Assembly: GCA_002763075.1 (NCBI GenBank)
Contig: PFDB01000010.1
Location: 6,553-70,552 of the forward strand
Source of the DNA: Candidatus Pacearchaeota archaeon CG10_big_fil_rev_8_21_14_0_10_34_76
GTDB lineage: Archaea > Nanobdellota > Nanobdellia > Pacearchaeales > GW2011-AR1
Reading direction: 5' to 3'
DNA: 64,000 nt
How positions within the stretch are numbered: the first letter of the stretch is position 1; every line of letters starts with the position of its first letter. Below the pieces are notes generated by a model. That model was given only the letters and a program-made list of their open reading frames with translations. It did not search any database and had not been told where the DNA came from. Position numbers and translations under genes: made by a program. Below are positions 11,942 to 59,046 of this stretch, piece after piece.

Positions 11942-11961
11942 GACTTAAACAACTAGTATAA

Positions 11962-27592: not shown

Positions 27593-27744
27593 CCCCTCAT
27601 AGCTCAATGGTTAGAGCACCTGGCTGTAGTCAATATGACTAACGCTGACTATCTCCAAAAGAGAATGGATGAAGCGCGATCAGACCATATTCGCTAGAAT
27701 ATGACAGAACCCGGGTTACCCCAGTTCGATTCTGGGTGAGGGGA
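27593..27744 (+). tRNA. tRNA-Tyr (anticodon GUA) with an 80-nt intron at 37/38
   Basis: Acceptor CCCCTCA/TGAGGGG (the C1-G72 pair typical of archaeal and eukaryotic tRNA-Tyr), D-arm GCTC-AATGGTTA-GAGC, anticodon stem CCTGG/CCGGG, loop CTGTAG|intron 27630-27709|C, T-arm CCCAG-TTCGATT-CTGGG, discriminator A. The intron 3' ACAG pairs with loop CUGU, a 4-bp helix as in a bulge-helix-bulge motif. Confidence 0.85.
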
Positions 27745-33632: not shown

Positions 33633-34184
33633 TTAGTTTCTTCTACTCATAAACCACAATACAATTATTCCTAAAAATGCAGTAAATGCCATCATTGGAA
33701 TTGTAATATATCCAAATTCTGCAAAGAATGATTCAGAACACGACGCACTATATCCCAACGCAGAACAAGGAAGGTCAACAGGATTCTCAGATGTCTGGTT
33801 ATAATAATGGAATCCAGCTATCAAAAGGCCAATCACTGAAAGCATTACAAGATAAGGCATTATCCTTCTTCTTTCTTTCCTTATTAATGCCATTCCTGCT
33901 ATGAAAACCATGGGATACATAAATATTCTTTGATACCAGCATAATGTACAAGGGGCAAACTTCAATAACTCAGAAAAAATCAAGCTTCCAACCATTGCTG
34001 TCAAGGATATAATAAACATAAACAATAGTCCTCTTTTTCCAAAGAATTTCCATAATTTATCTCCAAATCTCTTTCCAGAAGCCTTGAAAATTACCCAATC
34101 TAACAGATAAGCAACTATTACAACTTGTGCTATCAATGTGAGCACTGCAAAGATTTTTATCACACTTTGATCCCAAAATACCAT
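33633..34184 (-). CDS. DsbB-family disulfide bond formation protein (BdbC type)
   Basis: PCTLCWYQRIFMYP active-site motif, a second Cys pair (CSALGYSASC), and four or five TM helices. Confidence 0.85.
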   Translation of the reverse strand: MVFWDQSVIKIFAVLTLIAQVVIVAYLLDWVIFKASGKRFGDKLWKFFGKRGLLFMFIISLTAMVGSLIFSELLKFAPCTLCWYQRIFMYPMVFIAGMALIRKERRRIMPYLVMLSVIGLLIAGFHYYNQTSENPVDLPCSALGYSASCSESFFAEFGYITIPMMAFTAFLGIIVLWFMSRRN

Positions 34185-34220
34185 ATCTCAAAAAACAAAC
34201 TAGTGTTTATAAATTATTTT

Positions 34221-34235
34221 ATGAACCTAGTTCAT
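34221..34235 (-). promoter_or_regulatory. inverted-repeat operator candidate in the DsbB-like promoter
   Basis: ATGAAC-CTA-GTTCAT (6-3-6 perfect inverted repeat). Minus-sense layout: operator - 11 nt - TTATAAA - 21 nt - ATG(34184). Confidence 0.5.
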
Positions 34236-37364: not shown

Positions 37365-37622
37365 CTACTTTCTCCTCCTGTTATTAGATGAGTTGCCTTG
37401 AAGCTGCTGAACAAGCCAAACTATCAACAAAACTAATGCAACTAAAAAAACAAGCATAAAAATCCAGCCGAATGCCATTCCTCCCCAAGAGCCCATCATT
37501 CCCCAGCCATAGTTTGAACCCATCATTCCTCCCCATCCACCAAATGGCATTATAAATAGGAAAAATGCAAGTACAATCACAAGAACTACAATCCATGTAG
37601 TGGAATTATTATTTTTCGCCAT
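37365..37622 (-). CDS. small Gly/Met/Trp-rich membrane protein
   Basis: 85 aa: TM helix, GGWGGMMGSNYGWGMMGSWGGMAFGW, TM helix. Extended SD AAGGAGGCGAT lies before the ATG. Confidence 0.65.
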   Translation of the reverse strand: MAKNNNSTTWIVVLVIVLAFFLFIMPFGGWGGMMGSNYGWGMMGSWGGMAFGWIFMLVFLVALVLLIVWLVQQLQGNSSNNRRRK

Positions 37623-38031
37623 GTTTATCGCCTCCTTTCATTGTATGTAGAATATGTATACAATTCTTAGCCATATGCTTATCAATCATGTCCATCATAG
37701 GTAAAATTGTCTTTTCATTCAACTTGTAAAATCTGAATTTTCCATCACTTTCCATTTCAACAAACCCACATTTTCTCAATCTAGAAAGATTATGACTCAC
37801 AGAAGTCTGATCCATTTTCAACTCATTCATTATTTCAGAAACATTCTTTTTTCCATCTCTCAAAAAGTTAATTATTTTTAATCTCGGCTCACTCACTAAA
37901 GTTCCAAAGAATATCTTATAAGATTCATAAAGCTCTGCTTCACTCATGTGCCCATGTTCAATGTGTTTTAACATGTCTTTACTCATCATATGATGATTTA
38001 ATACATATATAGTATTTAAACCTTTTGACAA
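37609..38031 (-). CDS. ArsR/SmtB family metalloregulator
   Basis: SEPRLKIINFLRDGKKNVSEIMNELKMDQTSVSHNLSRLRKCGFV is the ArsR-type wHTH. Confidence 0.85.
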   Translation of the reverse strand: MSKGLNTIYVLNHHMMSKDMLKHIEHGHMSEAELYESYKIFFGTLVSEPRLKIINFLRDGKKNVSEIMNELKMDQTSVSHNLSRLRKCGFVEMESDGKFRFYKLNEKTILPMMDMIDKHMAKNCIHILHTMKGGDKHGEK

Positions 38032-39696: not shown

Positions 39697-40089
39697 TCAC
39701 TTAACATTCAACTTTCCAAAACCCATTCCCATAGTGCATGAGAAAGTGTAACTTCCTTTCTTAAGTGCAGGCAATTCCAAAACATCTGATTCTGATTGAA
39801 GATATTTAGAATATTTTTTCCCATCAAAATTAAAAACAACTGACCTTAAACATCCTCTAACTGATGAATCAGCACTCAACGAAATTGGCTGTCCAGCTTT
39901 CACTTCAACATCTTCATAATTGAAACCATCCTGACTAAGAACAACTTTCTGAGTCTGACCATCCAGAGCGTTTTCACCTTCATTGATAACATTTCCAGTC
40001 ACTCCTTTGCTTCCTGCATTAACAAATACGAAACCTCCAACTAAGATAATCATTACTCCTATGCCCATTAAAATCATTGAATTTTTCAT
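39697..40089 (-). CDS. membrane-anchored cupredoxin-like protein
   Basis: N-terminal TM helix. The C-terminal GSYTFSCTMGMGFGKLNV plus upstream Cys is the Cupredoxin_1-type copper-site pattern. Confidence 0.7.
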   Translation of the reverse strand: MKNSMILMGIGVMIILVGGFVFVNAGSKGVTGNVINEGENALDGQTQKVVLSQDGFNYEDVEVKAGQPISLSADSSVRGCLRSVVFNFDGKKYSKYLQSESDVLELPALKKGSYTFSCTMGMGFGKLNVK

Positions 40090-40110: not shown

Positions 40111-40137
40111 TTTTTAAGCTCTTCGATGAGACTAGTC
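40111..40137 (-). promoter_or_regulatory. TATA plus GACTAGTC operator module (cupredoxin promoter)
   Basis: Minus sense: GACTAGTC (40130-40137) - 12 nt - TTAAAAA (40111-40117) - 21 nt - ATG(40089). Confidence 0.6.
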
Positions 40138-42223: not shown

Positions 42224-42721
42224 CTAGAATTTTAAGAATACCTCTAGGGTTTTTCCTTTCTGAATCCTTTTTACAAGCCCTCTTCTTTCAAGCTCTTGAA
42301 GAACATAACTTAATTTAGCCTTAGACATATCAGTTCTTATTCTCAATGTTGATTGTGTGATTCCAGGTTGTTCTCTTATTGCCTTCACAATTTTTTGTTC
42401 GAATGGATCAAGAGCCTTTAATAAAATAGAAAACTTCATATCTTCAATTTTTTCATCCCTCTCTTTTTCAAGTCTTTCAAGGATTGCTTTTTCAGTTTTA
42501 TTAAAAAAGAGAAGATAAAATCCAAGTGCTATTATAAAGGAAAATATCCCTATCGCTATATGTGAAACAGACAAACCCCTTTCAAGTTCAAGACATCCTG
42601 GCTGATTAAAACACCCCATCTCATTTGATTGCTCTGATAAATTCAAGGAATAATAAACAAACATCCCCCCAACAATCAATCCAATAACAATTAAAAGCAC
42701 ACCCAGTTTTTTATTTTCCAT
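42224..42721 (-). CDS. membrane-anchored wHTH regulator with an extracytoplasmic Cys pair (sensor paralog 1)
   Basis: TM1, loop NEMGCFNQPGCLE, TM2, then a cytoplasmic wHTH (ITQSTLRIRTDMSKAKLSYVLQELERRGLVKR). Confidence 0.75.
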   Translation of the reverse strand: MENKKLGVLLIVIGLIVGGMFVYYSLNLSEQSNEMGCFNQPGCLELERGLSVSHIAIGIFSFIIALGFYLLFFNKTEKAILERLEKERDEKIEDMKFSILLKALDPFEQKIVKAIREQPGITQSTLRIRTDMSKAKLSYVLQELERRGLVKRIQKGKTLEVFLKF

Positions 42722-42764
42722 GATAATTGGGGGAATTAATATTTTAAAAATATATCTTATTCCA

Positions 42765-43028
42765 TTATTTCATCTTATTGTATATTGTAGCAAACAGCCA
42801 TCCAACAATCCATGCCAATACTACTATCTCAACAAGTCCAATAATCCCGCTTACTATTGAAACATTTGGGTTTGTTATCTTGCTAATATCCAATCCATGG
42901 AAAAGATATCCAAATAAACTCATTGTAGCTTCTGGAATAACAATTATCAACACGACGCACACAATAAATACTATTCCTGAAACAATTGCTAGCGAATTCG
43001 CCACATTTTTTGTATTTAATTTATCCAT
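42765..43028 (-). CDS. small two-TM membrane protein
   Basis: Start set to the ATG preceded by AAAGGAGGTGAGAAA (SD, 7-nt spacer). The listed MKGGEK extension is read-through of the SD. Confidence 0.6.
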   Translation of the reverse strand: MDKLNTKNVANSLAIVSGIVFIVCVVLIIVIPEATMSLFGYLFHGLDISKITNPNVSIVSGIIGLVEIVVLAWIVGWLFATIYNKMK

Positions 43029-43060
43029 TTTCTCACCTCCTTTCATAACTAAACATCAGA

Positions 43061-43579
43061 TTACTTTAATCTTATCTTGCAAGCTCCTTCCACAGATTTC
43101 CCTGTCAGATATATAGATACCATCAAAATAAAAATTCCAAGAACCTGTATCTCTAGTCCTCTAAAAGGAAAATACATCAATGCTAAAGGCATTCCAACAA
43201 GCCCAAAGAGGAATGCTCCACATGTTGGGCATCCAACTCCAAAAGCAGCAATTCCCGAGCCAATAAATCCAACTATTCCCTTTCCTTCCATTTTTTTATA
43301 ATTCTCAAACTTAAAGAAAATCATTGACATCAAAATTCCAGATAATACAGCAGTCACTATAATACTCGCCACACTAAATGTTATAAAAGCAGTCCCAGAC
43401 ATCATCACAGATATCCAGATGCTGTTATCAGCCACCTTAGCAACTAAAAAATAATACAAAATACCAAAAATCGCAATTCCTACTAACGAAGCTATTAACT
43501 TATACTTTCTACTACTCAACACTTCCCCAACAATAACAAATGTGTTGCCACATTCATCTTTTAGATTCATCCCAAACAC
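43061..43579 (-). CDS. polytopic membrane protein with an intramembrane CxxC (paralog A3)
   Basis: ...GSGIAAFGVGCPTCGAFLFGLVGMPLALMYFPFRGLEIQVL... plus a distal Cys (GACKIRL). Confidence 0.7.
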   Translation of the reverse strand: MFGMNLKDECGNTFVIVGEVLSSRKYKLIASLVGIAIFGILYYFLVAKVADNSIWISVMMSGTAFITFSVASIIVTAVLSGILMSMIFFKFENYKKMEGKGIVGFIGSGIAAFGVGCPTCGAFLFGLVGMPLALMYFPFRGLEIQVLGIFILMVSIYLTGKSVEGACKIRLK

Positions 43580-43785
43580 TCCGCATATATATTAGGATGA
43601 TGGCTCATATGTTCTCTCCAGCTTTCTTCGGTGTATCCTGGTTGAACATTACATTTTTCATTCCCAGAACTTCCAGCATCACTAATTGCATAGATTATCC
43701 CAGGAAATAAGGTAAGCAACAATAACCCGATCGAGACAATCCCTAAAACTATGTATAATATTATTTTTTTATTCATTAATGGCAT
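43567..43785 (-). CDS. small membrane-anchored protein with a Cys/His motif
   Basis: 72 aa: TM helix followed by CNVQPGYTEESWREHMSHHPNIYAEC. Confidence 0.5.
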   Translation of the reverse strand: MPLMNKKIILYIVLGIVSIGLLLLTLFPGIIYAISDAGSSGNEKCNVQPGYTEESWREHMSHHPNIYAECLG

Positions 43786-44255
43786 TTTCCTCCTTTCAAT
43801 ACGTTATTCATTTTTCTCCTATGATTTACCATAACAATTATTCCAAGAACATTAGATAATATTCCAATAGTCAATATCTCTGACTGATATTGAGCAAGAA
43901 AAACAGCCAACCCAGATAAACCTATAATTGGAATCACATTAAGAAGAAAATGACTACAACACGCAACCATACTTCCCGCAGAAAGAGTTCCAGTTCCTGC
44001 AACAGTTGCATTCACTCCGGCACTATGCCTTATTGATGTAAAAAGCCCGACTTGTATCCCAAATCCCCCAGCAAGAGGAATGATAAAATACCACAAGCTC
44101 CTCAAACTAAAAAATGCAAAAGCAACTCCTTGGAAAATGCTTATAACGCCTAAGTAAAATAGAACAAGTCCAATTCCTGCTAACAATCCATACAAAATTG
44201 CATTACTTTTTCTACTATTTTTTACATATCTCATGTTATTCCATACAGCATTCAA
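43776..44255 (-). CDS. polytopic membrane protein with a vicinal CC (divergent member of the CxxC family)
   Basis: ...GTLSAGSMVACCSHFLLNVIPIIGLSGLAVFLAQYQSEIL... is colinear with the CxxC..GLSG..LP..E segment of A1-A3. Confidence 0.6.
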   Translation of the reverse strand: MNAVWNNMRYVKNSRKSNAILYGLLAGIGLVLFYLGVISIFQGVAFAFFSLRSLWYFIIPLAGGFGIQVGLFTSIRHSAGVNATVAGTGTLSAGSMVACCSHFLLNVIPIIGLSGLAVFLAQYQSEILTIGILSNVLGIIVMVNHRRKMNNVLKGGKCH

Positions 44256-44727
44256 GAAGTTTTTTTACAGATGCAAAAACACTCTTTTTTTCATTGCTAC
44301 TTCCCATATTTATTTTCCCTGATTTCTTAAGATTAGAATCAATGTTCAATTTCCAAAACATTCCATACAGCTCTGCAGAATCTTTATACATTTCATCTGC
44401 CTCTTTCTCCTTTCCATCATGCAAAAGTCTGTTTCCTGTTTCAAATAATCTCATACTACTTGCCAGAAAGTGCTTGCTCATGCACCATTTCTCTCCTCCA
44501 TCATCATCTCTCACAATCAACTTCAAAAGTTTCTTTCTCAACTCTCTTACATTTTCAAGCATCTCAAGATATTTTTTGTCTTCTGTCTTCACATAACTAA
44601 AGAAACAATGCTCTTCCAAGGAGACAAGATTCATTATTCCAATAGAAAGATCTTCCCATGCAGATATATCTAACTCTTTCTTTCCCTTCACTTCTTCAAT
44701 CTTTTTCACAAAGTTATCAATTTTCAT
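44236..44727 (-). CDS. cytoplasmic helical protein with a Cys-rich C-terminus
   Basis: 163 aa with no TM helix. Cys at EEHCFF and KWCMSKH, and a terminal LLECCME. Confidence 0.55.
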   Translation of the reverse strand: MKIDNFVKKIEEVKGKKELDISAWEDLSIGIMNLVSLEEHCFFSYVKTEDKKYLEMLENVRELRKKLLKLIVRDDDGGEKWCMSKHFLASSMRLFETGNRLLHDGKEKEADEMYKDSAELYGMFWKLNIDSNLKKSGKINMGSSNEKKSVFASVKKLLECCME

Positions 44728-44728
44728 A

Positions 44729-45265
44729 TTATATTATTACAAACTGGATTAATAATGAGGAGATTATAAGCAACGCAAATGTCACAATAAGTCCTTGGAA
44801 TGGAATTCCTTTTCCATTTCTCTTTTCTTTTATCTTCCTACTCAATGAAGGAGAGACAAATACTATTACTCCTCCAAATAAACTACTTATCAAAGAGTAG
44901 TCAATAGCATAAGTTATTCCATATTCTCCTAAGAATGGTAAATACAATGGCCCTAAAGCACTAAATATTGGCATCAATGGCAATACAGTAAGAACAAACA
45001 CGCCCACAATTATCAACGTCTTCTGAAATGGAATATATCTTTTTTTTACAATTCTAGCAAACCACATCCCCATAGACATAGCAAAAGCCCCGATGAAAAG
45101 TGCTACGATTACCTTGCTGACTCCAAGCCAAACAGCTCCTGCAGCAGCAGCCCCTGCTCCAATAGTGCAAAGAGGACAATGCGCATATACACTTTCGGCC
45201 AGCATCAGAATAAATACAGGCATAGCAAACAGCCAAACCATCCACTTGTTGAATATTTTTTTCAT
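44729..45265 (-). CDS. polytopic membrane protein with an N-terminal HCPLC motif
   Basis: Signal-like helix, then AHCPLCTIGAGAAAAGAVWLG and four further TM helices. First gene of a seven-gene minus-strand operon. Confidence 0.65.
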   Translation of the reverse strand: MKKIFNKWMVWLFAMPVFILMLAESVYAHCPLCTIGAGAAAAGAVWLGVSKVIVALFIGAFAMSMGMWFARIVKKRYIPFQKTLIIVGVFVLTVLPLMPIFSALGPLYLPFLGEYGITYAIDYSLISSLFGGVIVFVSPSLSRKIKEKRNGKGIPFQGLIVTFALLIISSLLIQFVII

Positions 45266-45286
45266 GCTTACTCAAGTAAGATATTT

Positions 45287-45313
45287 ATTATAAGAGCTTT
45301 TGCGCGACTAGTC
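45287..45313 (-). promoter_or_regulatory. TATA plus GACTAGTC operator module (promoter of the 45265-42224 operon)
   Basis: Minus sense: GACTAGTC (45306-45313, within near-palindrome GCGCGACTAGTCACGC) - 12 nt - TTATAAT (45287-45293) - 21 nt - ATG(45265). 45289-45313 is an exact 25-nt copy of 47765-47789. Confidence 0.7.
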
Positions 45314-45337: not shown

Positions 45338-45976
45338 TTGGGTTGCACCCAGATATCAGATAAACATAAATATAATGGATATTACACTGCAAACATGGAA
45401 TATAACCCCGAAAGAAGAGAATTAAAACTGTCAAAAAAAAACAATGAACTGGATACATTTGTCTTAGATTTTGTAGGGCTTCTTAAGGATTATGTGGTCG
45501 TTTCAGGTTACGTCTCTATTCTTACTGGCAGATCTAGAGCTACAGAAGATATTGACCTGCTTATACCTTCTTTAAATTTTGAGGAATTTGAGGAATATTG
45601 GAAAAAGTTTGAAAAAGCAGGTTTTGAATGTCTGAATACTTCTAAGGAGAAAGAAGCGTTTGATATGCTTAAAGATCATGCTATACGCTTTGCACGAAAG
45701 GGAAAACCTATCCCGAATATGGAATTTAAGGTTATAACAAATGACGTACAAAAATACTCCTTAAACCATAAAATAAAAGTTATTTTAGGCCATAAAGAGA
45801 TGTTTATTTCTCCATTTGAAATGCAGATTGCTTACAAATTATTTTTAGGAAGCGAAAAAGATTTAGAAGACGCTAAACATATTTACGTACTGTTCAAGGA
45901 AAATCTTAATAATGATGAGCTCCTTAATCTATTAAATAAATTAAATGTGACAGATAAATTCCAGTTGATACAATGA
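45338..45976 (+). CDS. nucleotidyltransferase-fold protein (DUF6036/AbiEii-like)
   Basis: VVVSGYVSILTGRSRATEDIDLLIP is the G-x(n)-DxD pattern. Listed from TTG; the in-frame ATG at 45395 (MEYNPERRE) is the likelier start. Confidence 0.6.
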   Translation: MGCTQISDKHKYNGYYTANMEYNPERRELKLSKKNNELDTFVLDFVGLLKDYVVVSGYVSILTGRSRATEDIDLLIPSLNFEEFEEYWKKFEKAGFECLNTSKEKEAFDMLKDHAIRFARKGKPIPNMEFKVITNDVQKYSLNHKIKVILGHKEMFISPFEMQIAYKLFLGSEKDLEDAKHIYVLFKENLNNDELLNLLNKLNVTDKFQLIQ

Positions 45977-46128
45977 AGATAAATTTGAAAGAGCTTGAAA
46001 AGGAAAAACAAAAGAATTTTGAGGAAAGACTAGCTTTTGTAGAATTATGGGCAAATTACGTTAAAACTCATCCTGATGAGGTTTGGAGTGAGCAACAAAA
46101 AATGCTTATTGACTCACAATACTCTTAA
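45973..46128 (+). CDS. 51-aa companion ORF
   Basis: ATGA start/stop overlap with the NTase-fold gene. MKINLKELEKEKQKNFEERLAFVELWANYVKTHPDEVWSEQQKMLIDSQYS. Below the ORF-track length cutoff. Confidence 0.35.
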   Translation: MKINLKELEKEKQKNFEERLAFVELWANYVKTHPDEVWSEQQKMLIDSQYS

Positions 46129-46257: not shown

Positions 46258-46740
46258 TTAAATCCTCATCCACTCTCTAAAAGTCCCGTCGTTTTGAACA
46301 GCATATATAACGAAATCTCCTGATTTTGTTCCAGGCATTCCAGGGCTTCCATTCGGCATTCCAGGCATTGCAATTCCCTTTATGTCAGGTTTTTCTGTAA
46401 GAAGTTTCTCTACAGCTTCTAAAGGTATATGTCCCTCAATAAAATAATTTCCAATTATCGTTGTATGACAACTTTCCATTTGCGAAGGTATCTCATATTT
46501 TGCCTTTAAGGTTGAAAGACTTTCAAGATTGACAACTTCCACATCAGAGTTCCCCTTTCTTTGGAAATAATTAACAAAGACTCCACAACATCCACAGCTC
46601 CCCGTCTTGTATATTGTCATCTCGCCATCATATTCGCCTAACGAAGGATATCCGCTTGCTTTATTACTTCCAAATACAATAAACAAAGCAACCACTATTA
46701 TGATTACTCCTACTCCAACTATTATTGTTTTCTTTTTCAT
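46258..46740 (-). CDS. DUF411 (CopG-like) metal-binding protein, membrane-anchored
   Basis: SCGCCGVFVNYF, ESCHTT and IEGHIP motifs, with a Met/Pro-rich GMPNGSPGMPG segment. Confidence 0.75.
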   Translation of the reverse strand: MKKKTIIVGVGVIIIVVALFIVFGSNKASGYPSLGEYDGEMTIYKTGSCGCCGVFVNYFQRKGNSDVEVVNLESLSTLKAKYEIPSQMESCHTTIIGNYFIEGHIPLEAVEKLLTEKPDIKGIAMPGMPNGSPGMPGTKSGDFVIYAVQNDGTFREWMRI

Positions 46741-46747
46741 ATTTTAA

Positions 46748-46984
46748 TTAGCATCCTCCGACCATTGTAGATGCAGCACTCTGAGCAGCACTTCCTGTGC
46801 TTTGTGCAACACCAACAGAGCCTCCTATTCCTGCTTGGAATGTCATGAATAAAGCTATCAAAAACAATGCTCCAATCACAATCCACAAAACTATTCTTTT
46901 ATCCATTTTGATTATAAATCCTCCTTTCATTTTGTTTTCCCCTTCAGAGTTTTCTGAATTTGAAATATTACTGCAACAATCCAT
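46748..46984 (-). CDS. small membrane-anchored peptide ending in MVGGC
   Basis: Start uncertain: ATG at 46906 (MDKRIV..., 52 aa) or the ATG inside ATGAAAGGAGG. One TM helix; the last 20 nt of coding sequence plus stop are identical to 47055-47074. Confidence 0.5.
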   Translation of the reverse strand: MDCCSNISNSENSEGENKMKGGFIIKMDKRIVLWIVIGALFLIALFMTFQAGIGGSVGVAQSTGSAAQSAASTMVGGC

Positions 46985-47054
46985 TATTTTTCCTCCTTAA
47001 AGGATGGATAAAAGGAAAGGAATGCTAAGTCATAAAAAAATAAAAATTTACTCA

Positions 47055-47741
47055 TTAGCATCCTCCGACCATTGCTCCTCCAGAAGAGCTTTGTCCTTTC
47101 TCTATCCCTCTGTATAGATTAGATGCAAGATTGATATAATCAGTGCTATCTATTCCATTAGCTTCTAACACTTGTGCTTTCTGCTCATGAATCCCTGGGA
47201 AGAATAGAACTTTCCACTTCCCTAATTCCCTAAGTATATCTGCATCGCTCATTTCAGGATTGTTTATCAAAAGATACTTTGCAAGACCCCTCATTGCATA
47301 GCTATGTGCACATCCACAAGCCCTCTCCCCATTTGAGAAGATAATTGATTCAGCACCACAACAATACTCACAAGAGATTGATCCTGCAATCATTATATAT
47401 CTCTCAAGTTGTTCAGCATTCAACTGCAAGTCTTCGTATTCAGAAAGCTTTGCAATTGTAGCATCCGCAAGCCTTGGATTATTTGGAGATACATCATCGT
47501 AGCTAATCCCCATACTTGCTCCATATACTGCAGGGATTCCCTCAGGTATTATTTCTGAAGCAGAAACTGTCCCAACACCTGTAGCAAGTCCTGTAGGCCC
47601 AATAGATGAATAAACCTTTCCTGTATTAAATACAATTACTAATGCAAGAATAGCTATTATTCCTATTTGGACATAAAGCTCTGTCTTTCCGGAGCTGGTC
47701 GATCCTCCTTTCATTTCATTCTCACTTTCGTGTTTTTCCAT
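47055..47741 (-). CDS. membrane-anchored Cys-rich protein ending in MVGGC
   Basis: TM helix, then an ectodomain with SCEYCCGAESIIFSNGERACGCAHSYAMRGL and C-terminal GGAMVGGC. Confidence 0.65.
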   Translation of the reverse strand: MEKHESENEMKGGSTSSGKTELYVQIGIIAILALVIVFNTGKVYSSIGPTGLATGVGTVSASEIIPEGIPAVYGASMGISYDDVSPNNPRLADATIAKLSEYEDLQLNAEQLERYIMIAGSISCEYCCGAESIIFSNGERACGCAHSYAMRGLAKYLLINNPEMSDADILRELGKWKVLFFPGIHEQKAQVLEANGIDSTDYINLASNLYRGIEKGQSSSGGAMVGGC

Positions 47742-47762: not shown

Positions 47763-47789
47763 TATATAAGAGCTTTTGCGCGACTAGTC
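47763..47789 (-). promoter_or_regulatory. TATA plus GACTAGTC operator module (promoter of the 47741-46258 operon)
   Basis: Minus sense: GACTAGTC (47782-47789) - 12 nt - TTATATA (47763-47769) - 21 nt - ATG(47741). Confidence 0.7.
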
Positions 47790-47870: not shown

Positions 47871-48164
47871 ATGTTAGATCCACCGCCATTCTATAGGGGA
47901 CACGAAGGATTTCAAGAATTGATATCAAATAAAGATCTTGCCAGGCCTGGAAGAGCTATAAGAGTATACAATTATAGCAGGGATTCTGGAGATGAGGGCT
48001 TATATGTACTAGGAACAGAAAATCAATTATTCGATTCTGAGGGAAATATAGTAAAACCCGAGGATGTCTTGAGCAGGGAATCTGCGCCAGACGGATGGAG
48101 TGTTGAAGGCCCTGCATTACACCTTCTTCCCGAGTCAGAACTTGAGAAGATACTAAAACAATAA
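47871..48164 (+). CDS. hypothetical small protein
   Basis: 97-aa ORF with no motif. Confidence 0.45.
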   Translation: MLDPPPFYRGHEGFQELISNKDLARPGRAIRVYNYSRDSGDEGLYVLGTENQLFDSEGNIVKPEDVLSRESAPDGWSVEGPALHLLPESELEKILKQ

Positions 48165-48167
48165 TGA

Positions 48168-48557
48168 TTATTTCAGAGTATTCAAATGAACAACTAACTT
48201 TTTCATATCTTCAGCATCTCCTTCCAACTCAGAATAATATTTCTCATCCATTTCAAAATAAAATTTATTCAGGAATTTTATAGTCTTTTCATAATCTTCT
48301 ATCCCGTTCTTCTTCACAAGTTTGTAGAATGCACAGGCATAATCAGTCAAAGCCTTTGTGATTTCTCTTATCTCAGAATCTTTAATGTTTGGAATCTCAT
48401 CTTGAAAACGCTTCATATCGTCAAGCTCCTTATGGATTGTCTTCTCAAAATCTTGCTTTTTAATGTTCGAACGATGAATAATCCCGTGTTCCACTAAGCC
48501 TTTTTGGAAATTATCCAATCCATCCAGCATTTTTTGATTAAATCCACACAAAGGCAT
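48168..48557 (-). CDS. helical protein, MPxxGFxQ family (paralog 2)
   Basis: Start set to ATG 48557 (MPLCGFNQKMLDGL...), with GGAGG 9 nt upstream. The N-terminus parallels MPPSGFSQDAINGL of the upstream gene. Confidence 0.55.
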   Translation of the reverse strand: MPLCGFNQKMLDGLDNFQKGLVEHGIIHRSNIKKQDFEKTIHKELDDMKRFQDEIPNIKDSEIREITKALTDYACAFYKLVKKNGIEDYEKTIKFLNKFYFEMDEKYYSELEGDAEDMKKLVVHLNTLK

Positions 48558-48558
48558 T

Positions 48559-48909
48559 TTATTTTTCCTCCAATTTAAATTGAGCAAGATAATCTCCAAT
48601 GTTCTCTAGTTCAGTTCGGATAGCCTCGCCTTCCCTTTTTTTGCCTTGTGAAATTTCTGCTATGAGGTCTCTGAAATTGACTGAGACAAACTTGGCCAGC
48701 CCATCTATACCTTCCCGAGAAACAGTTCCGTTTAAAGCTAAGGGAGTACTCGTTTTTACAATTCCTTCCAAATATTCTATACTTGCATCTAAATGTTCTC
48801 TTTCAGATATGTTTTCATGCCTATATCTATCCAGAGTATTCTCGTAAGTGGATTTTACAAATGTAAGTAATCCATTTATCGCATCTTGACTGAATCCGCT
48901 TGGTGGCAT
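48559..48909 (-). CDS. helical protein, MPxxGFxQ family (paralog 1)
   Basis: 116-aa ORF, tandem with 48168..48557. Confidence 0.55.
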   Translation of the reverse strand: MPPSGFSQDAINGLLTFVKSTYENTLDRYRHENISEREHLDASIEYLEGIVKTSTPLALNGTVSREGIDGLAKFVSVNFRDLIAEISQGKKREGEAIRTELENIGDYLAQFKLEEK

Positions 48910-49018
48910 TTTGTTTTTCTCCTTAATTTCCCATAAGAAAAAGACCTAATATTAATTATCTCCCCTGTACAGGAGGTATAATAACAAGGTATTTATACTC
49001 GGAAATCTAACCTTTAGT

Positions 49019-49765
49019 ATGGTAAATGATGAAATGTTTAATCTCCTAAAGATAGGGCTCACAGAAGGAGAGGCAAAAGTCTATCTAGCTCTAAGTGAAC
49101 TAGGAAGTTCTACAGTAGGCCCAATAGTCAAAAAATCAGGGGTCGCCTATTCAAACATTTACGATATTTTGAATAGATTAGCAGAAAAGGGGATAGTCAG
49201 TTTTATCATAAAAAATAAGACAAAATACTTCCAGGCAGCCTCACCCTCAAATTTGATAAATTACTTAGATAGAAGAGAAGCTCAGATAATTGAACAACGA
49301 AATTCACTAAAAAAGATTCTTCCCGAAATTGAAAAACTACAAGGAATGAAGCAAAAACAAGAAGCAGAGATATTCCTAGGTAAAAAAGGATTAAGAACTG
49401 CATATGAAAAGATGTGCAAGGGCATATCAAAAAACGATGAAATTTTATTCTTCTATATACATGATGAAAAATATGGTGAAGAATCCAATCTTTTTTACAA
49501 TAGCATAGTTGATTTAGTAAAGCATGCAAAAAACAGAGGTATCTGTAATAAAGAATATAAGAATTCTTGGTTCGCAAAAAAGTCATCTCACTTAACTATG
49601 AGATTCTCAAGTATGCCTCTTCCAGGAAATATCGATATAACTTCAGACAAAGTCCTTTTGGTATCTTGGGGAGATCCTGTTTTTTCTGTTTTGATAAACT
49701 CTTTTTCTTTAGCAAATAATCTAAGAAATTATTTCAATGAAATGTGGAAGGTTGCTAAAAAATAA
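49019..49765 (+). CDS. TrmB family transcriptional regulator
   Basis: LTEGEAKVYLALSELGSSTVGPIVKKSGVAYSNIYDILNRLAEKGIV wHTH plus a TrmB-type C-terminal domain. Confidence 0.8.
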   Translation: MVNDEMFNLLKIGLTEGEAKVYLALSELGSSTVGPIVKKSGVAYSNIYDILNRLAEKGIVSFIIKNKTKYFQAASPSNLINYLDRREAQIIEQRNSLKKILPEIEKLQGMKQKQEAEIFLGKKGLRTAYEKMCKGISKNDEILFFYIHDEKYGEESNLFYNSIVDLVKHAKNRGICNKEYKNSWFAKKSSHLTMRFSSMPLPGNIDITSDKVLLVSWGDPVFSVLINSFSLANNLRNYFNEMWKVAKK

Positions 49766-49825: not shown

Positions 49826-50314
49826 TTAAGAATTTTTTAGGACAACAACATTAGTCATTCCCCTGCGTTTTCTCTCAACTAAATTTCTGCCCTCAAGCCT
49901 GTCAACTATTCTAGAAACTTTCTGCTTGCTCATTCCTGTTTTTTCAATTAAATCAGCCTGGAATATCGTTCCTCCAGATTCCTGTATCATCTTAAAGACC
50001 TTTTTGTCCTCTACCTTCAAATCAGATAAGTCAATTTTCTTTGGTTTTATCTTTTCAGGAACTTTTCTTATAATTACTCTTTCCTCGGGCTTAGTAAATA
50101 TCAATATAATTCCAATAATCACAAGTATTCCCACTATTGCCAACGCCAAAAAAGTCTGTTGAGTTATTGAATCATACATAGGACAACTCAGAGCGTGCTC
50201 TCCAGTACACGAACTTTTAACTATCTCCCTTAAGGTAGAATTAAAGAGCAAGATAATTACTATTATGACTAAAGAAATTCCTATTATTAACATGCCAACA
50301 TGTTTATTTTCCAT
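49826..50314 (-). CDS. membrane-anchored wHTH regulator with an extracytoplasmic Cys pair (sensor paralog 2)
   Basis: TM1, loop KSSCTGEHALSCPMYD, TM2, then the wHTH IFQADLIEKTGMSKQKVSRIVDRLEGRNLVERKRRGMTNVVVLK. Confidence 0.8.
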   Translation of the reverse strand: MENKHVGMLIIGISLVIIVIILLFNSTLREIVKSSCTGEHALSCPMYDSITQQTFLALAIVGILVIIGIILIFTKPEERVIIRKVPEKIKPKKIDLSDLKVEDKKVFKMIQESGGTIFQADLIEKTGMSKQKVSRIVDRLEGRNLVERKRRGMTNVVVLKNS

Positions 50315-50335: not shown

Positions 50336-50367
50336 TTTTTAATAGTATTGGATGAATGAAACTAGTC
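50336..50367 (-). promoter_or_regulatory. TATA plus GACTAGTT operator module (sensor paralog 2 promoter)
   Basis: Minus sense: GACTAGTT (50360-50367) - 17 nt - TTAAAAA (50336-50342) - 21 nt - ATG(50314). Confidence 0.5.
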
Positions 50368-50916
50368 CTTTTCACAGATCTTCTCAAGTTTAGAAAGAGC
50401 TCCACTCTCTAATTTCTTCTTTTCATCATGAATTTTCTGTAATATGCCCTGATAACCAATCTGCCAATCTTCTACTTGTCTCCATGTTAATGGCTCCCAA
50501 ATTTCTCTAGTTTGGTCAAAAACAAAAACCTGGTCCACCTTTCTAAAATCTCTTTCGCCTTCGTTATTTGCAATAAGTTTAATGTCAATGTCATCATCAA
50601 TAAGTATTTCCAACCTATATTGCGGAATTACTTTCTTAGATTCAGACAAGAAACCTTTTTCAGTTTCAATTCTTTGAGTATAATAATTTGAAATAACTAT
50701 TTTCTTATCACCATCAGAAAAATATTCTCTGCTCTCATTTACCGGAGGAGTTGCATAATTCCAAACACTAGTAAGTCTCTTTTCTTCCTTTTTACGCTCA
50801 TTATTATTATGCAAGGCAGATGCTCCAATCCATAAAATACCCAATAACGCCATTGCACCAATCGTCCATTCTATTTTACTACCTTTCTCTGTGTGATACT
50901 GTTCATTTTCAGCCAT
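50362..50916 (-). CDS. membrane-anchored hypothetical protein (last gene of the SPFH operon)
   Basis: 184 aa with an N-terminal TM helix. The C-terminal EIWEPLTWRQVEDWQIGY resembles the G(K/S)WE motif of the two small upstream proteins. Confidence 0.55.
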   Translation of the reverse strand: MAENEQYHTEKGSKIEWTIGAMALLGILWIGASALHNNNERKKEEKRLTSVWNYATPPVNESREYFSDGDKKIVISNYYTQRIETEKGFLSESKKVIPQYRLEILIDDDIDIKLIANNEGERDFRKVDQVFVFDQTREIWEPLTWRQVEDWQIGYQGILQKIHDEKKKLESGALSKLEKICEKD

Positions 50917-56128: not shown

Positions 56129-56812
56129 TTATCCAAAAACACCACTTCTAGGTCCGAATACCATAAACCAAGCGGTAACAACTGTAAGCACGAATGTCAA
56201 GAAAATAGTCCAGAAATGATCTTCCTTCTTCTTTCTTGTCTCAGAGCGCATTTCTTTGAATATCATATAATTCAATGAGAATAATATAATTGCAGAGATT
56301 AAGAAAACAATCACTGCGCTTGGTATTAAATTATCATTAAACAACATAAAAGCAGTCATAGCCCCCATAAGTCCTCCCATAAAGCCAGCCATCATTCCTT
56401 CCATGAACCCCATCACACCACAGCACTTTCCATTCCATATCCCAAGTACAATTCCAACCCCCATTCCAAAAACGCTTCCAACAAACATACCATTAGTTGA
56501 AGCTACAAAAAATCCAGCCAAAAACCCAGCAATCATTCCTGTTGTCATTCCAACCATCATCCCCGACATACATGGCATTTCCCCATAAGCCCTAACTTGT
56601 CTTATAGCAGGAACAAGGAAAGCATAGCTCAATGCAGCAAAAAACATAAAGAATCCTTGCTTAGACATGAAATCTGGTATTTCGCTAAATCTAAAGAAGT
56701 ACAATATTCCCAAAATAATGAAGGATGTCAGCAATGAATAGAAAATTGTCTTGATTAACTCTCCCTCTACTCTATCCCCATGTTTCACTTCTTTCAAAAA
56801 TTCCCTAAACAT
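56129..56812 (-). CDS. polytopic Gly/Met-rich membrane protein with a CC motif
   Basis: GEMPCMSGMMVGMTTGMIAGF ... WNGKCCGVMGFMEGMMAGFMGGLMGAM across six or seven TM helices. Confidence 0.6.
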   Translation of the reverse strand: MFREFLKEVKHGDRVEGELIKTIFYSLLTSFIILGILYFFRFSEIPDFMSKQGFFMFFAALSYAFLVPAIRQVRAYGEMPCMSGMMVGMTTGMIAGFLAGFFVASTNGMFVGSVFGMGVGIVLGIWNGKCCGVMGFMEGMMAGFMGGLMGAMTAFMLFNDNLIPSAVIVFLISAIILFSLNYMIFKEMRSETRKKKEDHFWTIFLTFVLTVVTAWFMVFGPRSGVFG

Positions 56813-56859
56813 GTTTTCTCCTTGTTTTTTTAATATTTAAGTTCTTTGGTGAATCAAAA

Positions 56860-58074
56860 TCATTTTGCAATCTTGGAAATTTCATCAACTGCCCTAATGA
56901 ATTTCATTGCATCTTCTTCAGTATTATAAAAATAAAATGAGGCCCTAACACTTCCATTAATATTGTGTTTGTTAAACCATCCATGAACACAATGAGCTCC
57001 ACCTCTTACCATAATCCCATACCCTGAATCAAGTATTTTAGCAACTTCATGAGGAGTCATTCCTTTAATATTGAAATTAAAAATTCCATTTCTCAACACT
57101 GAATCGGCAGGTCCTATAATCTCTACTTTTTTATTATCCTTCAACCCATCCGTGATTATTTTATTTAGATTATGCTCATGTTTCCCAATGTTTTTCATCC
57201 CAATCTTCCTCAAATATCTGCATGCTTCTCCAAAACCAATTATTCCAGAATAATTCTGCAATCCTGCCTCAAATCTATGGGGAATATCTTCAGGAACAAA
57301 ATCCTCAAAACTAGAATCTTTTATTGTTTCTCCTCCAACAATAAACATCTTGAGTTTCTCAAGCTCCGAAAACTTGCCGTATAATGCTCCTGTCCCAGAA
57401 GGTCCACACATTTTATGTCCAGAAAAAGCAAGAAAATCGCAATCAATTTTCCCAACATCAATCTCTATGTGCGGAACACTCTGACAAGCATCTATCATAA
57501 CCTTGACTCCTTTTTCATGAGAGAATTTTGCTATTTCATTAATAGGATTTTCAACCCCATCAAGATTACTTATATGTACAATAGAAACAAATTTTGTTTT
57601 TTCATTAAAACAATTTTTAAAATTCTTCATGTTAAAAGTATTATCCAAATTTGATTCGCAAACTACAACTTTTATTCCATTTTCCTCTGCAAGTTTAATC
57701 CAGGGAATTAGATTAGAACTGTGTTCTTTATCTGTGATTATAACCTCATCTCCCTTTTTCCAACTCAATCCACTGATAACTAGGTTTATTGCTTCAGTAG
57801 CATTTCTTGTAAATACAATTTCCTTTTCCTTAGCAGAAATAAATCTAGCAATTTCTCTCCTAGCACTAGAAATTTCTTCATCTAATCTCCTTCCAAATTT
57901 ATGAGAACTTCTTCCAGCACACGCAGTGTAATAATAATAATATTCATTCATTTTATCAATTACACATTTTGGCTTTAGAGAGATGCATGCAGAATCAAGA
58001 TATATGGTCTTAGGATTATTTTCAAGAATAGGAAAATCTTTCTTTATTTTTTCAGCATTAAAACCAAAGATCAT
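56860..58074 (-). CDS. cysteine desulfurase (class V aminotransferase, SufS/CsdA-like)
   Basis: PLP-lysine motif FSGHKMCGPSGTGALYG and catalytic-Cys segment VRGGAHCVHGW. Confidence 0.85.
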   Translation of the reverse strand: MIFGFNAEKIKKDFPILENNPKTIYLDSACISLKPKCVIDKMNEYYYYYTACAGRSSHKFGRRLDEEISSARREIARFISAKEKEIVFTRNATEAINLVISGLSWKKGDEVIITDKEHSSNLIPWIKLAEENGIKVVVCESNLDNTFNMKNFKNCFNEKTKFVSIVHISNLDGVENPINEIAKFSHEKGVKVMIDACQSVPHIEIDVGKIDCDFLAFSGHKMCGPSGTGALYGKFSELEKLKMFIVGGETIKDSSFEDFVPEDIPHRFEAGLQNYSGIIGFGEACRYLRKIGMKNIGKHEHNLNKIITDGLKDNKKVEIIGPADSVLRNGIFNFNIKGMTPHEVAKILDSGYGIMVRGGAHCVHGWFNKHNINGSVRASFYFYNTEEDAMKFIRAVDEISKIAK

Positions 58075-58487
58075 GATACTCCCTCAGAATAATTAGAAAT
58101 TTTGTCTTCCCCAGAATTTGACTTCAACCCGTTTTCCACACTACTTATCACACAAAACCCATTAGAATTTTCACCATTGCAATTTCTATACATAACATAA
58201 TTATATATTCCTACAGCAGAAAAATAGAAAGAAAGAATAGTTATGATAAGAATTACCATTATAATAATTTTATAATTTCTGTAAAATCCCCTTCCTAAGA
58301 CTGGAGAGATTTTCATAAGCCTTCCAGTTATATCGCTTTTAATTCTCTCATCAAATCCGCTTCTGCACTTCCTAAATGTCACATTTCTGAATAAGCAATC
58401 AAAACTTTCAACAGCAAGTTTTCTATATCTGACACTAAATATTCCCATGACAGCCAAAAATGGCAATGCAATCCAACATAATACCAT
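58071..58487 (-). CDS. membrane protein with conserved Cys pairs
   Basis: 138 aa with two TM helices. Cys in FDCLFRNVTFRKC and NCNGENSNGFC. ATGA overlap with the desulfurase gene. Confidence 0.5.
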   Translation of the reverse strand: MVLCWIALPFLAVMGIFSVRYRKLAVESFDCLFRNVTFRKCRSGFDERIKSDITGRLMKISPVLGRGFYRNYKIIIMVILIITILSFYFSAVGIYNYVMYRNCNGENSNGFCVISSVENGLKSNSGEDKISNYSEGVS

Positions 58488-58508: not shown

Positions 58509-58538
58509 TATATAACCACTTTTGTGAAACTAGTTTCA
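58509..58538. promoter_or_regulatory. divergent promoter with a perfect 14-bp palindrome operator
   Basis: TGAAACTAGTTTCA (58525-58538). Minus sense: AACTAGTT - 12 nt - TTATATA (58509-58515) - 21 nt - ATG(58487). On the plus side, the palindrome lies 34 nt before ATG 58573 of sensor paralog 3. Confidence 0.7.
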
Positions 58539-58572
58539 TAAGGTTTATTAAGAATAGAAAAATAAGATTATT

Positions 58573-59046
58573 ATGGATAACAAATATGTGGGTTATATAC
58601 TCCTTGGAGTTTCCGCATTGATTATTCTATACATATTTATATTTCAATCAATGATAAATGAGATTGATGAAGGTAGCTGTTCAATTGAAACCTGCCCATA
58701 TCATGCATCATTTAACAAACTTTTATACTTGTCTCTTAGCATTGTTGGAATATTAATAATCGTAGGATTGGTCTTAGTATTATCAAAACCTAAAGAAAGA
58801 ATAGTAATTAAAAAAATTATGCAAAGACCTCATAAAATAAAGCTAGATACCTCATTTCTAAAACCCGAAGAAAAACACGTCCTGAATATAGTATTGGAGA
58901 ACAAAGCAATATTCCAGGCTGATTTGATTGAGAAAACAGGATTCGGAAAGGCCAAAATTACTCGCATTCTAGACAGGCTTGAAGGTCACAATTTTATAGA
59001 GAGAAAACGCAGAGGCATGACAAATGTTGTTGTTCTGAAACAATAA
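58573..59046 (+). CDS. membrane-anchored wHTH regulator with an extracytoplasmic Cys pair (sensor paralog 3)
   Basis: TM1, loop DEGSCSIETCPYHAS, TM2, then the wHTH IFQADLIEKTGFGKAKITRILDRLEGHNFIERKRRGMTNVVVLK. Confidence 0.8.
   Translation: MDNKYVGYILLGVSALIILYIFIFQSMINEIDEGSCSIETCPYHASFNKLLYLSLSIVGILIIVGLVLVLSKPKERIVIKKIMQRPHKIKLDTSFLKPEEKHVLNIVLENKAIFQADLIEKTGFGKAKITRILDRLEGHNFIERKRRGMTNVVVLKQ

Follow-up and report, generated by a model that had tools for sequence, protein, structure and literature searches.

A palindromic promoter site conserved in DPANN archaea: candidate operator of an envelope copper-stress regulon

Introduction

Why should one short palindrome, centred on ACTAGT, stand directly upstream of several promoters within a single region of an archaeal genome? 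The region in question is a stretch of 64,000 nt (hereafter the window; positions 6,553 to 70,552 of contig PFDB01000010.1) from Candidatus Pacearchaeota archaeon CG10_big_fil_rev_8_21_14_0_10_34_76, which also encodes three membrane proteins with a winged helix-turn-helix (wHTH) domain (hereafter R1, R2 and R3). DPANN archaea are uncultured or hard to grow, and almost nothing is known of how they regulate their genes. A first-pass annotation of the window had proposed the palindrome, in the form RACTAGTY, as the operator of an envelope thiol/metal stress regulon and had linked all three regulators to it. Comparison with related genomes indicates that the palindrome is a genuine regulatory site in the DNA, which keeps one fixed promoter position in dozens of DPANN species. 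We consider it probable that the palindromes are the operators of a conserved envelope copper-stress regulon of DPANN archaea (Pacearchaeota/Woesearchaeota), run by DUF7343 regulators with two transmembrane (TM) helices and a Cys-containing loop.

Conservation of the operator in related genomes

The site was footprinted in 80 loci from as many species-level genomes, each with a gene for a relative of R1; they are the best 80 of at least 568 and comprise the regulator gene with its 6-kb flanks. Relatives of the regulator come from genomes annotated as Pacearchaeota, Woesearchaeota or Nanoarchaeota. Of the 80 loci, 55 contain the perfect 14-mer TGAAACTAGTTTCA, with 56 occurrences in all (0.01 expected); it is the dominant intergenic context of ACTAGT there, and in about 35 loci the regulator gene is immediately divergent from it. 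On the non-regulator side, the distance from the end of the 14-mer to the ATG is 37 nt in 36 and 38 nt in 10 of 77 site-gene pairs, and several of the outliers differ from this by a multiple of three, as expected from open reading frame (ORF) starts called too far upstream. By contrast, the regulator-side distance is free (20-92 nt, mostly 34-92). Aligned target promoters read (R)TGAAACTAGTTTCA-C-AAAAG-NNN-TTWWATA-21/22 nt-ATG with the remainder diverged, and the layout ...TTTCAC-AAAAG-NNN-TTWWATA is found in 46 promoters of other genomes. The 14-mer lies at about -51 to -38 of leaderless promoters, abuts the AAAAG at -36 to -32, which resembles the transcription factor B (TFB) recognition element (BRE), and stands 9 nt from the TATA box. 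This operator-to-TATA spacing varies by no more than ±1 nt over five gene families in dozens of species. A fixed position in orthologous promoters whose flanks have diverged, as expected of a functional operator, is what these alignments display.

The site marks particular genes. Homologs of the Met-rich 227-aa membrane protein encoded at 56129-56812 have it upstream in 39 of 47 cases, and those of the Cys-rich 228-aa protein (47055-47741) in 17 of 21, at 37-38 nt. Cupredoxin genes have a site of their own in only 2 of 38 cases; 31 of the 38 lie inside an operon, typically as the next gene after the Met-rich one. Similarly, a membrane protein with an HCPLC motif has its own site in 2 of 16 cases and is otherwise mostly operon-internal, directly after DUF411 in several loci. 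Two of five DsbB homologs carry the 14-mer at about the offset seen for DsbB in the window, one canonical (L052) and one as TGAAACTGGTTTCA with a single mismatch at 37 nt (L068). The site is absent upstream of CopA (0/28), HMA (0/23), ArsR (0/20) and DsbA (0/14) genes. In two close relatives of the window (L084 and L085), the promoter of the cupredoxin ortholog contains TGAAACCAGTTTCA or TGAAACTGGTTTCA at 37 nt, and the Met-rich gene has its own TGAAATTAGTTTCA, an internal site that is degenerate in the window.

The operator proposed in the first-pass annotation, a palindrome just upstream of the BRE/TATA and common to promoters of copper-, cysteine- and sulphur-related envelope genes, is therefore strongly backed by phylogenetic footprinting, the check that the annotation itself had called for, with the same gene families and a fixed offset recurring across the loci. 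Its RACTAGTY is the real core of the site, but the conserved consensus is a 14-16-mer, (R)TGAAACTAGTTTCA(Y), of which the GACTAGTC form found in the window is a rare variant.

Some promoters contain tandem operator copies, either adjacent or overlapping with starts 14 nt apart (L040 at 5038 and 5052; L077 at 36 and 50) or 28-48 nt apart (L005 at 5911 and 5939; L032 at 5895 and 5943). This suggests cooperative or multi-dimer binding at some promoters.

Operator sites and promoter geometry in the window

The window contains one canonical operator, three GACTAGTC variants and several relaxed or degenerate sites (Table 1). All four promoters that had been described as RACTAGTY-12 nt-TATA-21 nt-ATG hold to the nucleotide in coordinates and spacings. 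Only the operator-to-TATA spacing is special, however, because the 21 nt between TATA and ATG belong to a generic promoter layout: a TTTAWAAA box at -29 to -22 from the ATG is present in nearly all promoters of the window and in 354 non-target promoters of the related genomes. We accordingly rejected TATA-21 nt-ATG as a component of the signal. Archaeal TATA boxes lie about 26 bp upstream of the start site, and the layout implies that transcripts in these DPANN genomes are predominantly leaderless. The general promoter consensus, from the window and the 80 related loci, consists of an A-rich BRE, AA at -33/-32 and the TTTAWAAA box.

Table 1. Operators, regulators and target genes in the window (positions are those of the window; for promoters, the order is operator, spacer, TATA box, spacer, start codon)
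Feature	Position	Strand	Description
Canonical operator	58525-58538		Perfect 14-mer TGAAACTAGTTTCA, enclosing AACTAGTT; within an 85-nt divergent region
Promoter of R1-divergent operon	58528-58535	-	AACTAGTT, 12 nt, TTATATA (58509-58515), 21 nt, ATG 58487
BRE-like AAAAG	58519-58523	-	Precedes TATA box 58509-58515 of the target operon
TATA box of R1 gene	58544-58551	+	TTTATTAA, 5 nt past the operator end; operator over the BRE position
Promoter of 228-aa operon	47782-47789	-	GACTAGTC within ATGAGACTAGTCGCGC, 12 nt, TTATATA (47763-47769), 21 nt, ATG 47741
Promoter of HCPLC operon	45306-45313	-	GACTAGTC within GCGTGACTAGTCGCGC, 12 nt, TTATAAT (45287-45293), 21 nt, ATG 45265
Promoter of cupredoxin gene	40130-40137	-	GACTAGTC within TTTGACTAGTCTCAT, 12 nt, TTAAAAA (40111-40117), 21 nt, ATG 40089
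Hybrid site	50357-50370		One canonical half (TGAAACT, plus strand), one GGACT-type half; includes GACTAGTT (50360-50367)
Promoter of DsbB gene	34221-34235	-	Compressed palindrome ATGAACCTAGTTCAT (6-3-6, against the usual 7-2-7); TATA box 34206-34213
Degenerate relic of a second operator	56850-56863	-	ATGATTTTGATTCA, 9 nt upstream of TTAAATA (56834-56840); TGAAATTAGTTTCA in close relatives
R1	58573-59046	+	TM1 6-24, outside loop C-x4-C-P-Y-H, TM2 53-71, K/R-rich linker, wHTH; recognition helix GFGKAKITR
R2	49826-50314	-	Architecture as R1; loop C-x7-C-P-M-Y; recognition helix GMSKQKVSR (family consensus KAK)
R3	42224-42721	-	Architecture as R1, 21% identity to R1; own TATA box in a 43-nt gap
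First gene of R1-divergent operon	58071-58487	-	138-aa Cys-containing membrane protein, close relatives only
Cysteine desulfurase	56860-58074	-	Aminotran_5 (precomputed Pfam call on 404-aa counterparts in close relatives); lineage-specific operon insertion
Met-rich membrane protein	56129-56812	-	227 aa, core conserved target
228-aa operon	46258-47741	-	Cys-rich 228-aa protein (47055-47741), small MVGGC protein (46748-46984), DUF411 protein (46258-46740)
HCPLC operon	42765-45265	-	Six genes: HCPLC membrane protein (44729-45265), 163-aa protein, 159-aa CC membrane protein, 72-aa protein, 172-aa GCPTCG membrane protein, DUF5676 protein
Cupredoxin gene	39697-40089	-	Membrane-anchored cupredoxin-like protein
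DsbB gene	33633-34184	-	DsbB family

The evidence for an operator is position and conservation, not the bare RACTAGTY count, which is unremarkable: 7 copies were observed in the window against 3.2 expected, and 8 of 100 shuffles reach 7 or more, which is no significant excess. Placement is different. Six of the 13 ACTAGT copies in the window are intergenic (seven with one that straddles a stop codon), where intergenic DNA makes up 9.5% of the window (P=7e-4), and ACTAGT is the sole G+C-containing palindromic hexamer enriched in the window's intergenic DNA. That four sites share one offset from the ATG has a probability of ~9e-6, or 5e-4 with an exact 25-nt duplicate counted once. This duplicate (45289-45313 = 47765-47789) was correctly reported before, and the identity ends there. 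A scan of the window for the 14-mer with at most two mismatches finds only the site at 58525, whose operator ends 37 nt from ATG 58487 on the minus strand and 34 nt from ATG 58573 on the plus strand.

The two relaxed sites are present as described earlier. The hybrid site near R2 has its GACTAGTT 17 nt from TTAAAAA and 42 nt before ATG 50314, a distance inside the regulator-side range of other genomes; it overlaps the TAG stop codon of gene 50362-50916, and whether it functions as an operator is uncertain. The DsbB site ATGAACCTAGTTCAT is 7 nt from TTTATAAA, a distance of about 11 nt when measured from the core. From the end of ATGAACCTAGTTCAT to the DsbB ATG (34184) there are 36 nt, which is the offset of the canonical 16-mer. 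A second ACTAGT (AACACTAGTTTG) lies at 34199-34204 between the DsbB TATA box and ATG, so that this promoter has a palindrome upstream and a core hexamer downstream of the TATA box. Another ACTAGT (11952-11957), between TATA and ATG of gene 10142-11941, has operator-unlike flanks and is probably there by chance.

Three other origins of the sites were considered and set aside. An RNA element or hairpin was rejected, as the sites match no Rfam family and the folding energies of the palindromes (0 to -3 kcal/mol) do not surpass those of shuffled sequences. A restriction site or chance cannot give a fixed promoter offset across species. Promoter duplication accounts for the 45306/47782 pair only.

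Membrane-anchored wHTH regulators

R1, R2 and R3 each have hydrophobic helices at about residues 6-24 and 53-73, a loop of ~30 residues with two cysteines between them, a Lys/Arg-rich stretch and a C-terminal winged helix of 60 residues. The two hydrophobic 19-mers have Kyte-Doolittle values of 2.4-3.3, and AlphaFold2 models place helices at 3-32 and 42-70. The loop cysteines are invariant or near-invariant, and positive charges follow TM2; by the positive-inside rule, the loop would face outside and the wHTH the cytoplasm. All three match Pfam DUF7343 (PF24034) from profile position 4 to 61 of 62, with 33.8, 51.1 and 34.9 bits where the cutoff is 27.6, and MarR (PF01047; 28.4-30.4 bits against 24.6) over residues ~98-154 only. 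No HTH_AsnC or TRASH match was found in any of them in Pfam or NCBIfam. Structure and sequence searches return only generic MarR/ArsR-type wHTH domains, and the matches in the Protein Data Bank (PDB) stop at the wHTH: in Foldseek, ~60-66 residues superpose at 1.1-1.5 Å on MexR, PcaV, MftR and others. The dimerisation and ligand-pocket helices of MarR proteins are absent, the N-terminal 75 residues being two TM helices and the loop, and nothing follows the wing.

The earlier proposal that all three regulators are linked to a site and autoregulated fares unevenly. It is convincing for R1, whereas R2 has only the uncertain hybrid site and R3 has its own TATA box with no linked site. R3 had been counted as the last gene of a seven-gene operon, but the TATA box in the 43-nt gap makes six genes plus a separately promoted gene the more likely arrangement. 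Orthologs of R3 form a group of 165-aa proteins, with at least 65% identity among at least 120 proteins, and usually lie beside a DsbA/Thioredoxin_4 cluster. In three loci (L081-L083) they stand alone beside DsbA clusters without ACTAGT promoter sites; a link between R3 and the GACTAGTC variant was therefore rejected, and R3 is probably outside the ACTAGT regulon. An attempt to divide the relatives in other genomes into R1-like and R2-like by identity gave no clean division, and the presence of a site does not track identity.

An operator variant that accompanies a recognition-helix change

At position ±4, the A of the consensus is replaced by G in all six half-sites of the three GACTAGTC sites. 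The sites at 47782 and 40130 each keep one near-canonical half, TGAGACT, and that at 45306 has no canonical half. Among 212 sampled relatives of R1 and R2 the recognition helix reads G-K-A-K-(M/I/V)-(T/S)-R, and K-Q-K is found only in R2 and two others (P0242 and P0248). On the contig of P0242 (L086), the orthologous operon, whose gene order is that of the window, is preceded by GGGACTAGTCGCAC-AAAAG-CGG-TTAAATA-21 nt-ATG; the proteins there are only 60-67% identical to those of the window. No GACTAGTC promoter operator occurs in the 80 loci with a KAK regulator; the contig of the third KQK regulator (L087) is too short, with an unrelated downstream gene, and is uninformative. The co-occurrence of KQK and GACTAGTC has a Fisher P of 6e-4, valid only if the two genomes are taken as independent. 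Judged from this pattern, GACTAGTC is a lineage-specific operator variant that co-occurs with the KAK-to-KQK change, which suggests that R2 has a shifted specificity and is a candidate binder of GACTAGTC.

Target genes and operon architecture

Nearly all targets are membrane or secreted proteins. The uncharacterised ones have no family in Pfam or NCBIfam, even with E allowed to reach 10, or, for those that were also compared by sequence with the PDB, in that database. The most conserved among them, the Met-rich 227-aa family, has about 14 invariant Met residues, invariant C81, C130, C131, N107 and E138, and about seven predicted helices; it has no relative in Pfam, NCBIfam or the PDB, and the AlphaFold2 single-sequence model is poor (pLDDT 63). 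We regard it as a candidate new Cu(I) membrane transporter or sink. Besides the DsbB, cupredoxin-like and DUF411 proteins, the genes around the sites in the window encode a P-type ATPase with a CPC motif, an HMA protein, a regulator of ArsR type, a rhodanese, two DsbA-like proteins and many family-less Met- or Cys-rich membrane proteins.

The usual operons elsewhere are [site]-Met-rich-cupredoxin and [site]-228 aa-MVGGC-DUF411-HCPLC. In L086 the cluster is contiguous and follows the window's gene order: R2-like regulator, operator, 228-aa...DUF411, HCPLC...R3...multicopper oxidase-cupredoxin...DsbA. In the window it is broken at 45338-46128 and 47871-49765 by plus-strand and unrelated genes, and each piece has its own operator-promoter. 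These genes comprise a 212-aa ORF (real start probably ATG 45395), a 97-aa ORF, small paralogs at 48168-48599 and 48559-48909, and a TrmB-like regulator at 49019-49765. The interrupting blocks look like insertions that split an ancestral operon. Since the HCPLC gene at 44729-45265 has counterparts that are usually operon-internal elsewhere, the promoter at 45306 appears to have arisen at this split; read in this way, the 25-nt duplicate is a promoter copy ahead of the separated HCPLC operon.

Signal, mode of action and alternative explanations

The envelope thiol/metal stress regulon put forward in the first-pass annotation is supported in outline, with a target set that speaks more for copper than for a general response to thiols. 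Several features of the genes make copper the likeliest signal, among them the roughly 14 invariant Met and three Cys residues of the core Met-rich target. The best PDB match of the cupredoxin-like protein is CupA (4F2E/2MRY), with Cys...C-x-M-x-M aligned; the protein also matches Pfam Cupredoxin_1 (32.3 bits against a cutoff of 27) and has an N-terminal hydrophobic segment. The DUF411 protein matches the solved DUF411 structure 6WIS (E=1e-18), which we take to be the copper resistance protein CopG. Of the 80 loci, 31 have CopA, 37 HMA and 44 cupredoxin at no more than 6 kb from the regulator, and a multicopper oxidase lies inside the cluster of L081 and L086. Finally, the sensor loop, C-x(4-10)-C-P/E-M/Y/A-Y/H, would offer S/S/S(Met) ligands, a pattern that fits a Cu(I) site.

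We lean towards signal-dependent activation as the mode of action, because characterised archaeal factors that sit directly upstream of the BRE activate and because the spacing is fixed on the target side and free on the regulator side. At promoters induced by copper, CopR of Pyrococcus furiosus has a semi-palindrome 'directly upstream of the BRE', and it represses its own divergent gene (PMC7830388); TFB-RF1 and EarA also activate from upstream of the BRE (PMC5937170, PMC5512572). In the mechanism that we propose, a regulator dimer would bind the palindrome while membrane-tethered, Cu(I) on the outside Cys/Cys/Met loop would alter the dimer, and the bound dimer would assist TFB and the TATA-binding protein (TBP) onto the adjacent BRE/TATA, leading to activation. 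Where the site overlaps the BRE of the divergent regulator gene itself (34-nt class, as in the window), binding would damp regulator synthesis. Proteolytic release of the wHTH would be an alternative to binding from the membrane. In this genome, the cluster may have been split by insertions, each piece keeping or copying the promoter; the paralogue R2 (KQK) probably took over GACTAGTC at three promoters, and 58525-58538 would stay with R1. DPANN archaea possess very few regulators. A more specific version has a family-specific membrane-tethered activator running their envelope copper defence through contacts with TFB/TBP at a rigid distance, the single KAK-to-KQK helix change and the symmetric A-to-G change having made, in this lineage, two insulated circuits with different sensor loops. 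We hold this version only tentatively; if true, it would provide a natural and readable case in which an archaeal transcription factor and its operator have evolved together.

Several observations weigh against an activator-run copper regulon. The link between regulator and site is one of adjacency, in loci selected through the regulator, and both this link and the mode of action are drawn from sequence and layout. The variant sites have at least four mismatches to the 14-mer, are at background level by mismatch count alone and differ at the most conserved flanks; the co-occurrence of KQK with GACTAGTC concerns two related genomes and possibly one evolutionary event, and a metagenome scan for GACTAGTC-N4-AAAAG-N3-TTWWA gave 49 matches, which were all due to chance and encoded no relatives of the window's proteins. 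With E=0.05, the match to CupA is marginal, and the Cys pair of the regulator could be a redox rather than a metal reporter. The core promoters of the targets fall only a little short of typical strength (median 8.25 vs 8.9 bits, P=0.03) and do not look activator-dependent. Could another factor then read the palindrome, with the membrane wHTH proteins as mere regulon members? The ArsR-type regulator (37609-38031), the TrmB-like regulator or a restriction-modification system (ACTAGT is the SpeI site) might do so: for any candidate the protein-operator assignment comes from sequence, and an ArsR homolog lies near the regulator in 19 of the 80 loci. We think this very improbable, as a palindrome of another kind marks the start of the ArsR gene, which lacks the ACTAGT site in all 20 cases, the TrmB-like gene is found in 1 of 80 loci only and a restriction-modification target would not keep one promoter offset, whereas the divergence of regulator and site in ~35 species and the co-change of helix and operator point to the membrane wHTH family. 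It is rather easier to imagine, though still doubtful, that the GACTAGTC sites are weaker or degenerate sites of R1 that give a graded response, with the KQK helix of R2 unrelated. They retain the ACTAGT core and its exact position, two keep the TGAGACT half, relatives tolerate the central-hexamer variants ACCAGT and ATTAGT, and the covariation involves two genomes only. Degeneration would not readily explain, however, why all six half-sites share the same symmetric A-to-G change, why 45306, without a canonical half, is an exact copy of a maintained promoter, and why the variant recurs with a KQK regulator at the orthologous L086 promoter despite the protein divergence.

With the membrane regulator as the reader of the site, the sign of its action and the nature of its signal can still be disputed. 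Because the target promoters are near typical strength, repression is a live alternative: the same protein, bound at -51 to -38, would block TFB at the BRE, and the signal would derepress. MarR-type wHTH proteins are mostly repressors, and MexR and other MarR members are the closest solved matches; the target BRE/TATA elements are near consensus strength, the site overlaps the BRE at the regulator's own promoter, and the extra ACTAGT at 34199-34204 lies downstream of the DsbB TATA box. Yet archaeal repressor sites usually overlap the TATA/BRE or the start and need no fixed spacing, in contrast to the ±1 nt found here over five families, and the known factors directly upstream of the BRE (CopR, TFB-RF1 and EarA) activate; repression is thus a possibility to which we give the smaller share. 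Less probable again is that the loop senses the extracytoplasmic thiol-disulfide state, as in the periplasmic domains of ToxR and CadC, and that the regulon serves oxidative folding or thiol stress. Two conserved Cys residues in an outside loop of ~30 aa would suit such a sensor, DsbB is a target in the window, L052 and L068, DsbA, rhodanese and cysteine desulfurase genes are neighbours or members, and many targets are Cys-rich. The most conserved targets, however, are the Met-rich membrane protein and the CxMxM CupA-like protein and include no thiol oxidoreductases, DsbA is never a direct target (0/14), and the C...C-P-M/Y-H/Y residues fit a Cu(I) site. The two readings also overlap, as copper itself causes thiol stress.

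Comparison with known systems

The nearest likeness to the proposed copper regulon is CopR (P. furiosus; Sulfolobus/Saccharolobus), an archaeal copper-responsive regulon with a (semi-)palindrome directly upstream of the BRE and a divergent, self-damped regulator (PMC7830388), the copper response being presumed in our case. CopR differs in that it is a soluble protein with an Lrp/AsnC-type HTH and a cytoplasmic TRASH domain that controls copA, whereas the regulators described here would be integral membrane proteins that combine a Cys loop on the outside with a MarR-like wHTH. The operator sequences, too, are unrelated (TTNNCAWWWTGNNAA for CopR, TGAAACTAGTTTCA here), and copA and copZ are outside the present regulon (0/28 and 0/23).

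As membrane-anchored one-component DNA binders, the regulators resemble ToxR, CadC, TcpP and the Sulfolobus ArnR/ArnR1. In ToxR and CadC, which use periplasmic cysteines, an OmpR-type wHTH at the N-terminus is followed by one TM helix and a large periplasmic domain at the C-terminus. The present regulators have the opposite order, with an N-terminal hairpin of two TM helices, the loop of ~30 aa as sole sensor and a minimal C-terminal wHTH; Trans_reg_C gives no match, and regulon and phylum differ from those of ToxR, CadC, TcpP and ArnR. The three proteins nevertheless fall under the definition of transmembrane transcription regulators (a DNA-binding domain plus at least one predicted TM region), their membrane insertion being predicted. 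Such regulators are widespread in archaea (PMC10269533), and the membrane-bound ArnR and ArnR1 have been shown experimentally to be activators (PMC6396743).

The likeness to the MarR family (e.g. MexR and OhrR) consists of the superposable wHTH of ~60 aa and a palindromic operator of ~14-16 bp. In some MarR proteins, Cys residues serve to sense copper or oxidation. Two TM helices replace the MarR dimer and ligand-pocket helices here, and the site is upstream of an archaeal BRE, not over a bacterial -35/-10. Bacteria also separate an outside-copper sensor for envelope proteins (CusRS/CopRS) from a cytoplasmic regulator that goes with P-type ATPase and chaperone (CueR/CsoR/CopY), but the system described here would use a single protein without histidine kinase, phosphorelay or sigma factor, acting on the archaeal basal machinery. 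CupA is a Cu(I) chaperone of Streptococcus pneumoniae, and the copY-cupA-copA set of that species likewise contains a membrane-anchored cupredoxin-like protein with Cys...CxMxM in a copper-linked gene set. There, cupA is under the soluble repressor CopY and is co-transcribed with copA; here, in most genomes, the gene goes with the Met-rich membrane gene and would be controlled through the ACTAGT operator.

A full-text literature search returned nothing relevant on DUF7343, on the operator sequence or on DPANN in combination with transcription factor, copper or membrane, in line with the earlier statement that the regulon had not been described. The kind of system is known (i.e. membrane one-component regulator, archaeal metal regulon and pre-BRE site), but the family, operator, regulon and phylum-specific distribution have not been described. 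They supply a regulator family with more than 560 species-level loci, an operator that is near-invariant over order-level distances, a promoter geometry fixed to ±1 bp and a compact regulon of mostly uncharacterised Met-/Cys-rich envelope proteins, several of which thereby become testable copper-handling candidates. The 60-aa wHTH, the 14-bp site and the fixed distance to BRE/TATA offer a simple in vitro system for studying how BRE-adjacent factors act, and the regulators would extend archaeal membrane-anchored transcription control beyond Sulfolobus ArnR.

Other features of the window

A different palindrome, CATCATATGATG (37983-37994), lies 23 nt downstream of TTTAAATA and is centred on the probable leaderless start codon of an ArsR/HTH_5 gene (minus strand, listed as 37609-38031) that heads a set of genes, arsR-85 aa-rhodanese-HMA-GNAT-CopA. 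The related element (TTA)TCATATGA(TAA) stands at the start of ArsR homologs in 14 of 20 loci, 12 of the 14 with the full TCATATGA core, and is partly coding. Placed over the start site, the classical position of a repressor, in the same genome as the ACTAGT operators, CATCATATGATG is probably the autoregulatory operator of a cytoplasmic metal regulon. Because the ACTAGT targets are nearly all membrane or secreted proteins whereas copA and copZ go with the ArsR-type gene, we suggest a division of labour between outside (ACTAGT regulon) and inside (ArsR, copA and copZ).

The window also contains a tRNA gene at 27593-27744 (plus strand; 152 nt), its fourth, which was found by an Rfam match, is presumably intron-containing and is not in the ARAGORN output.

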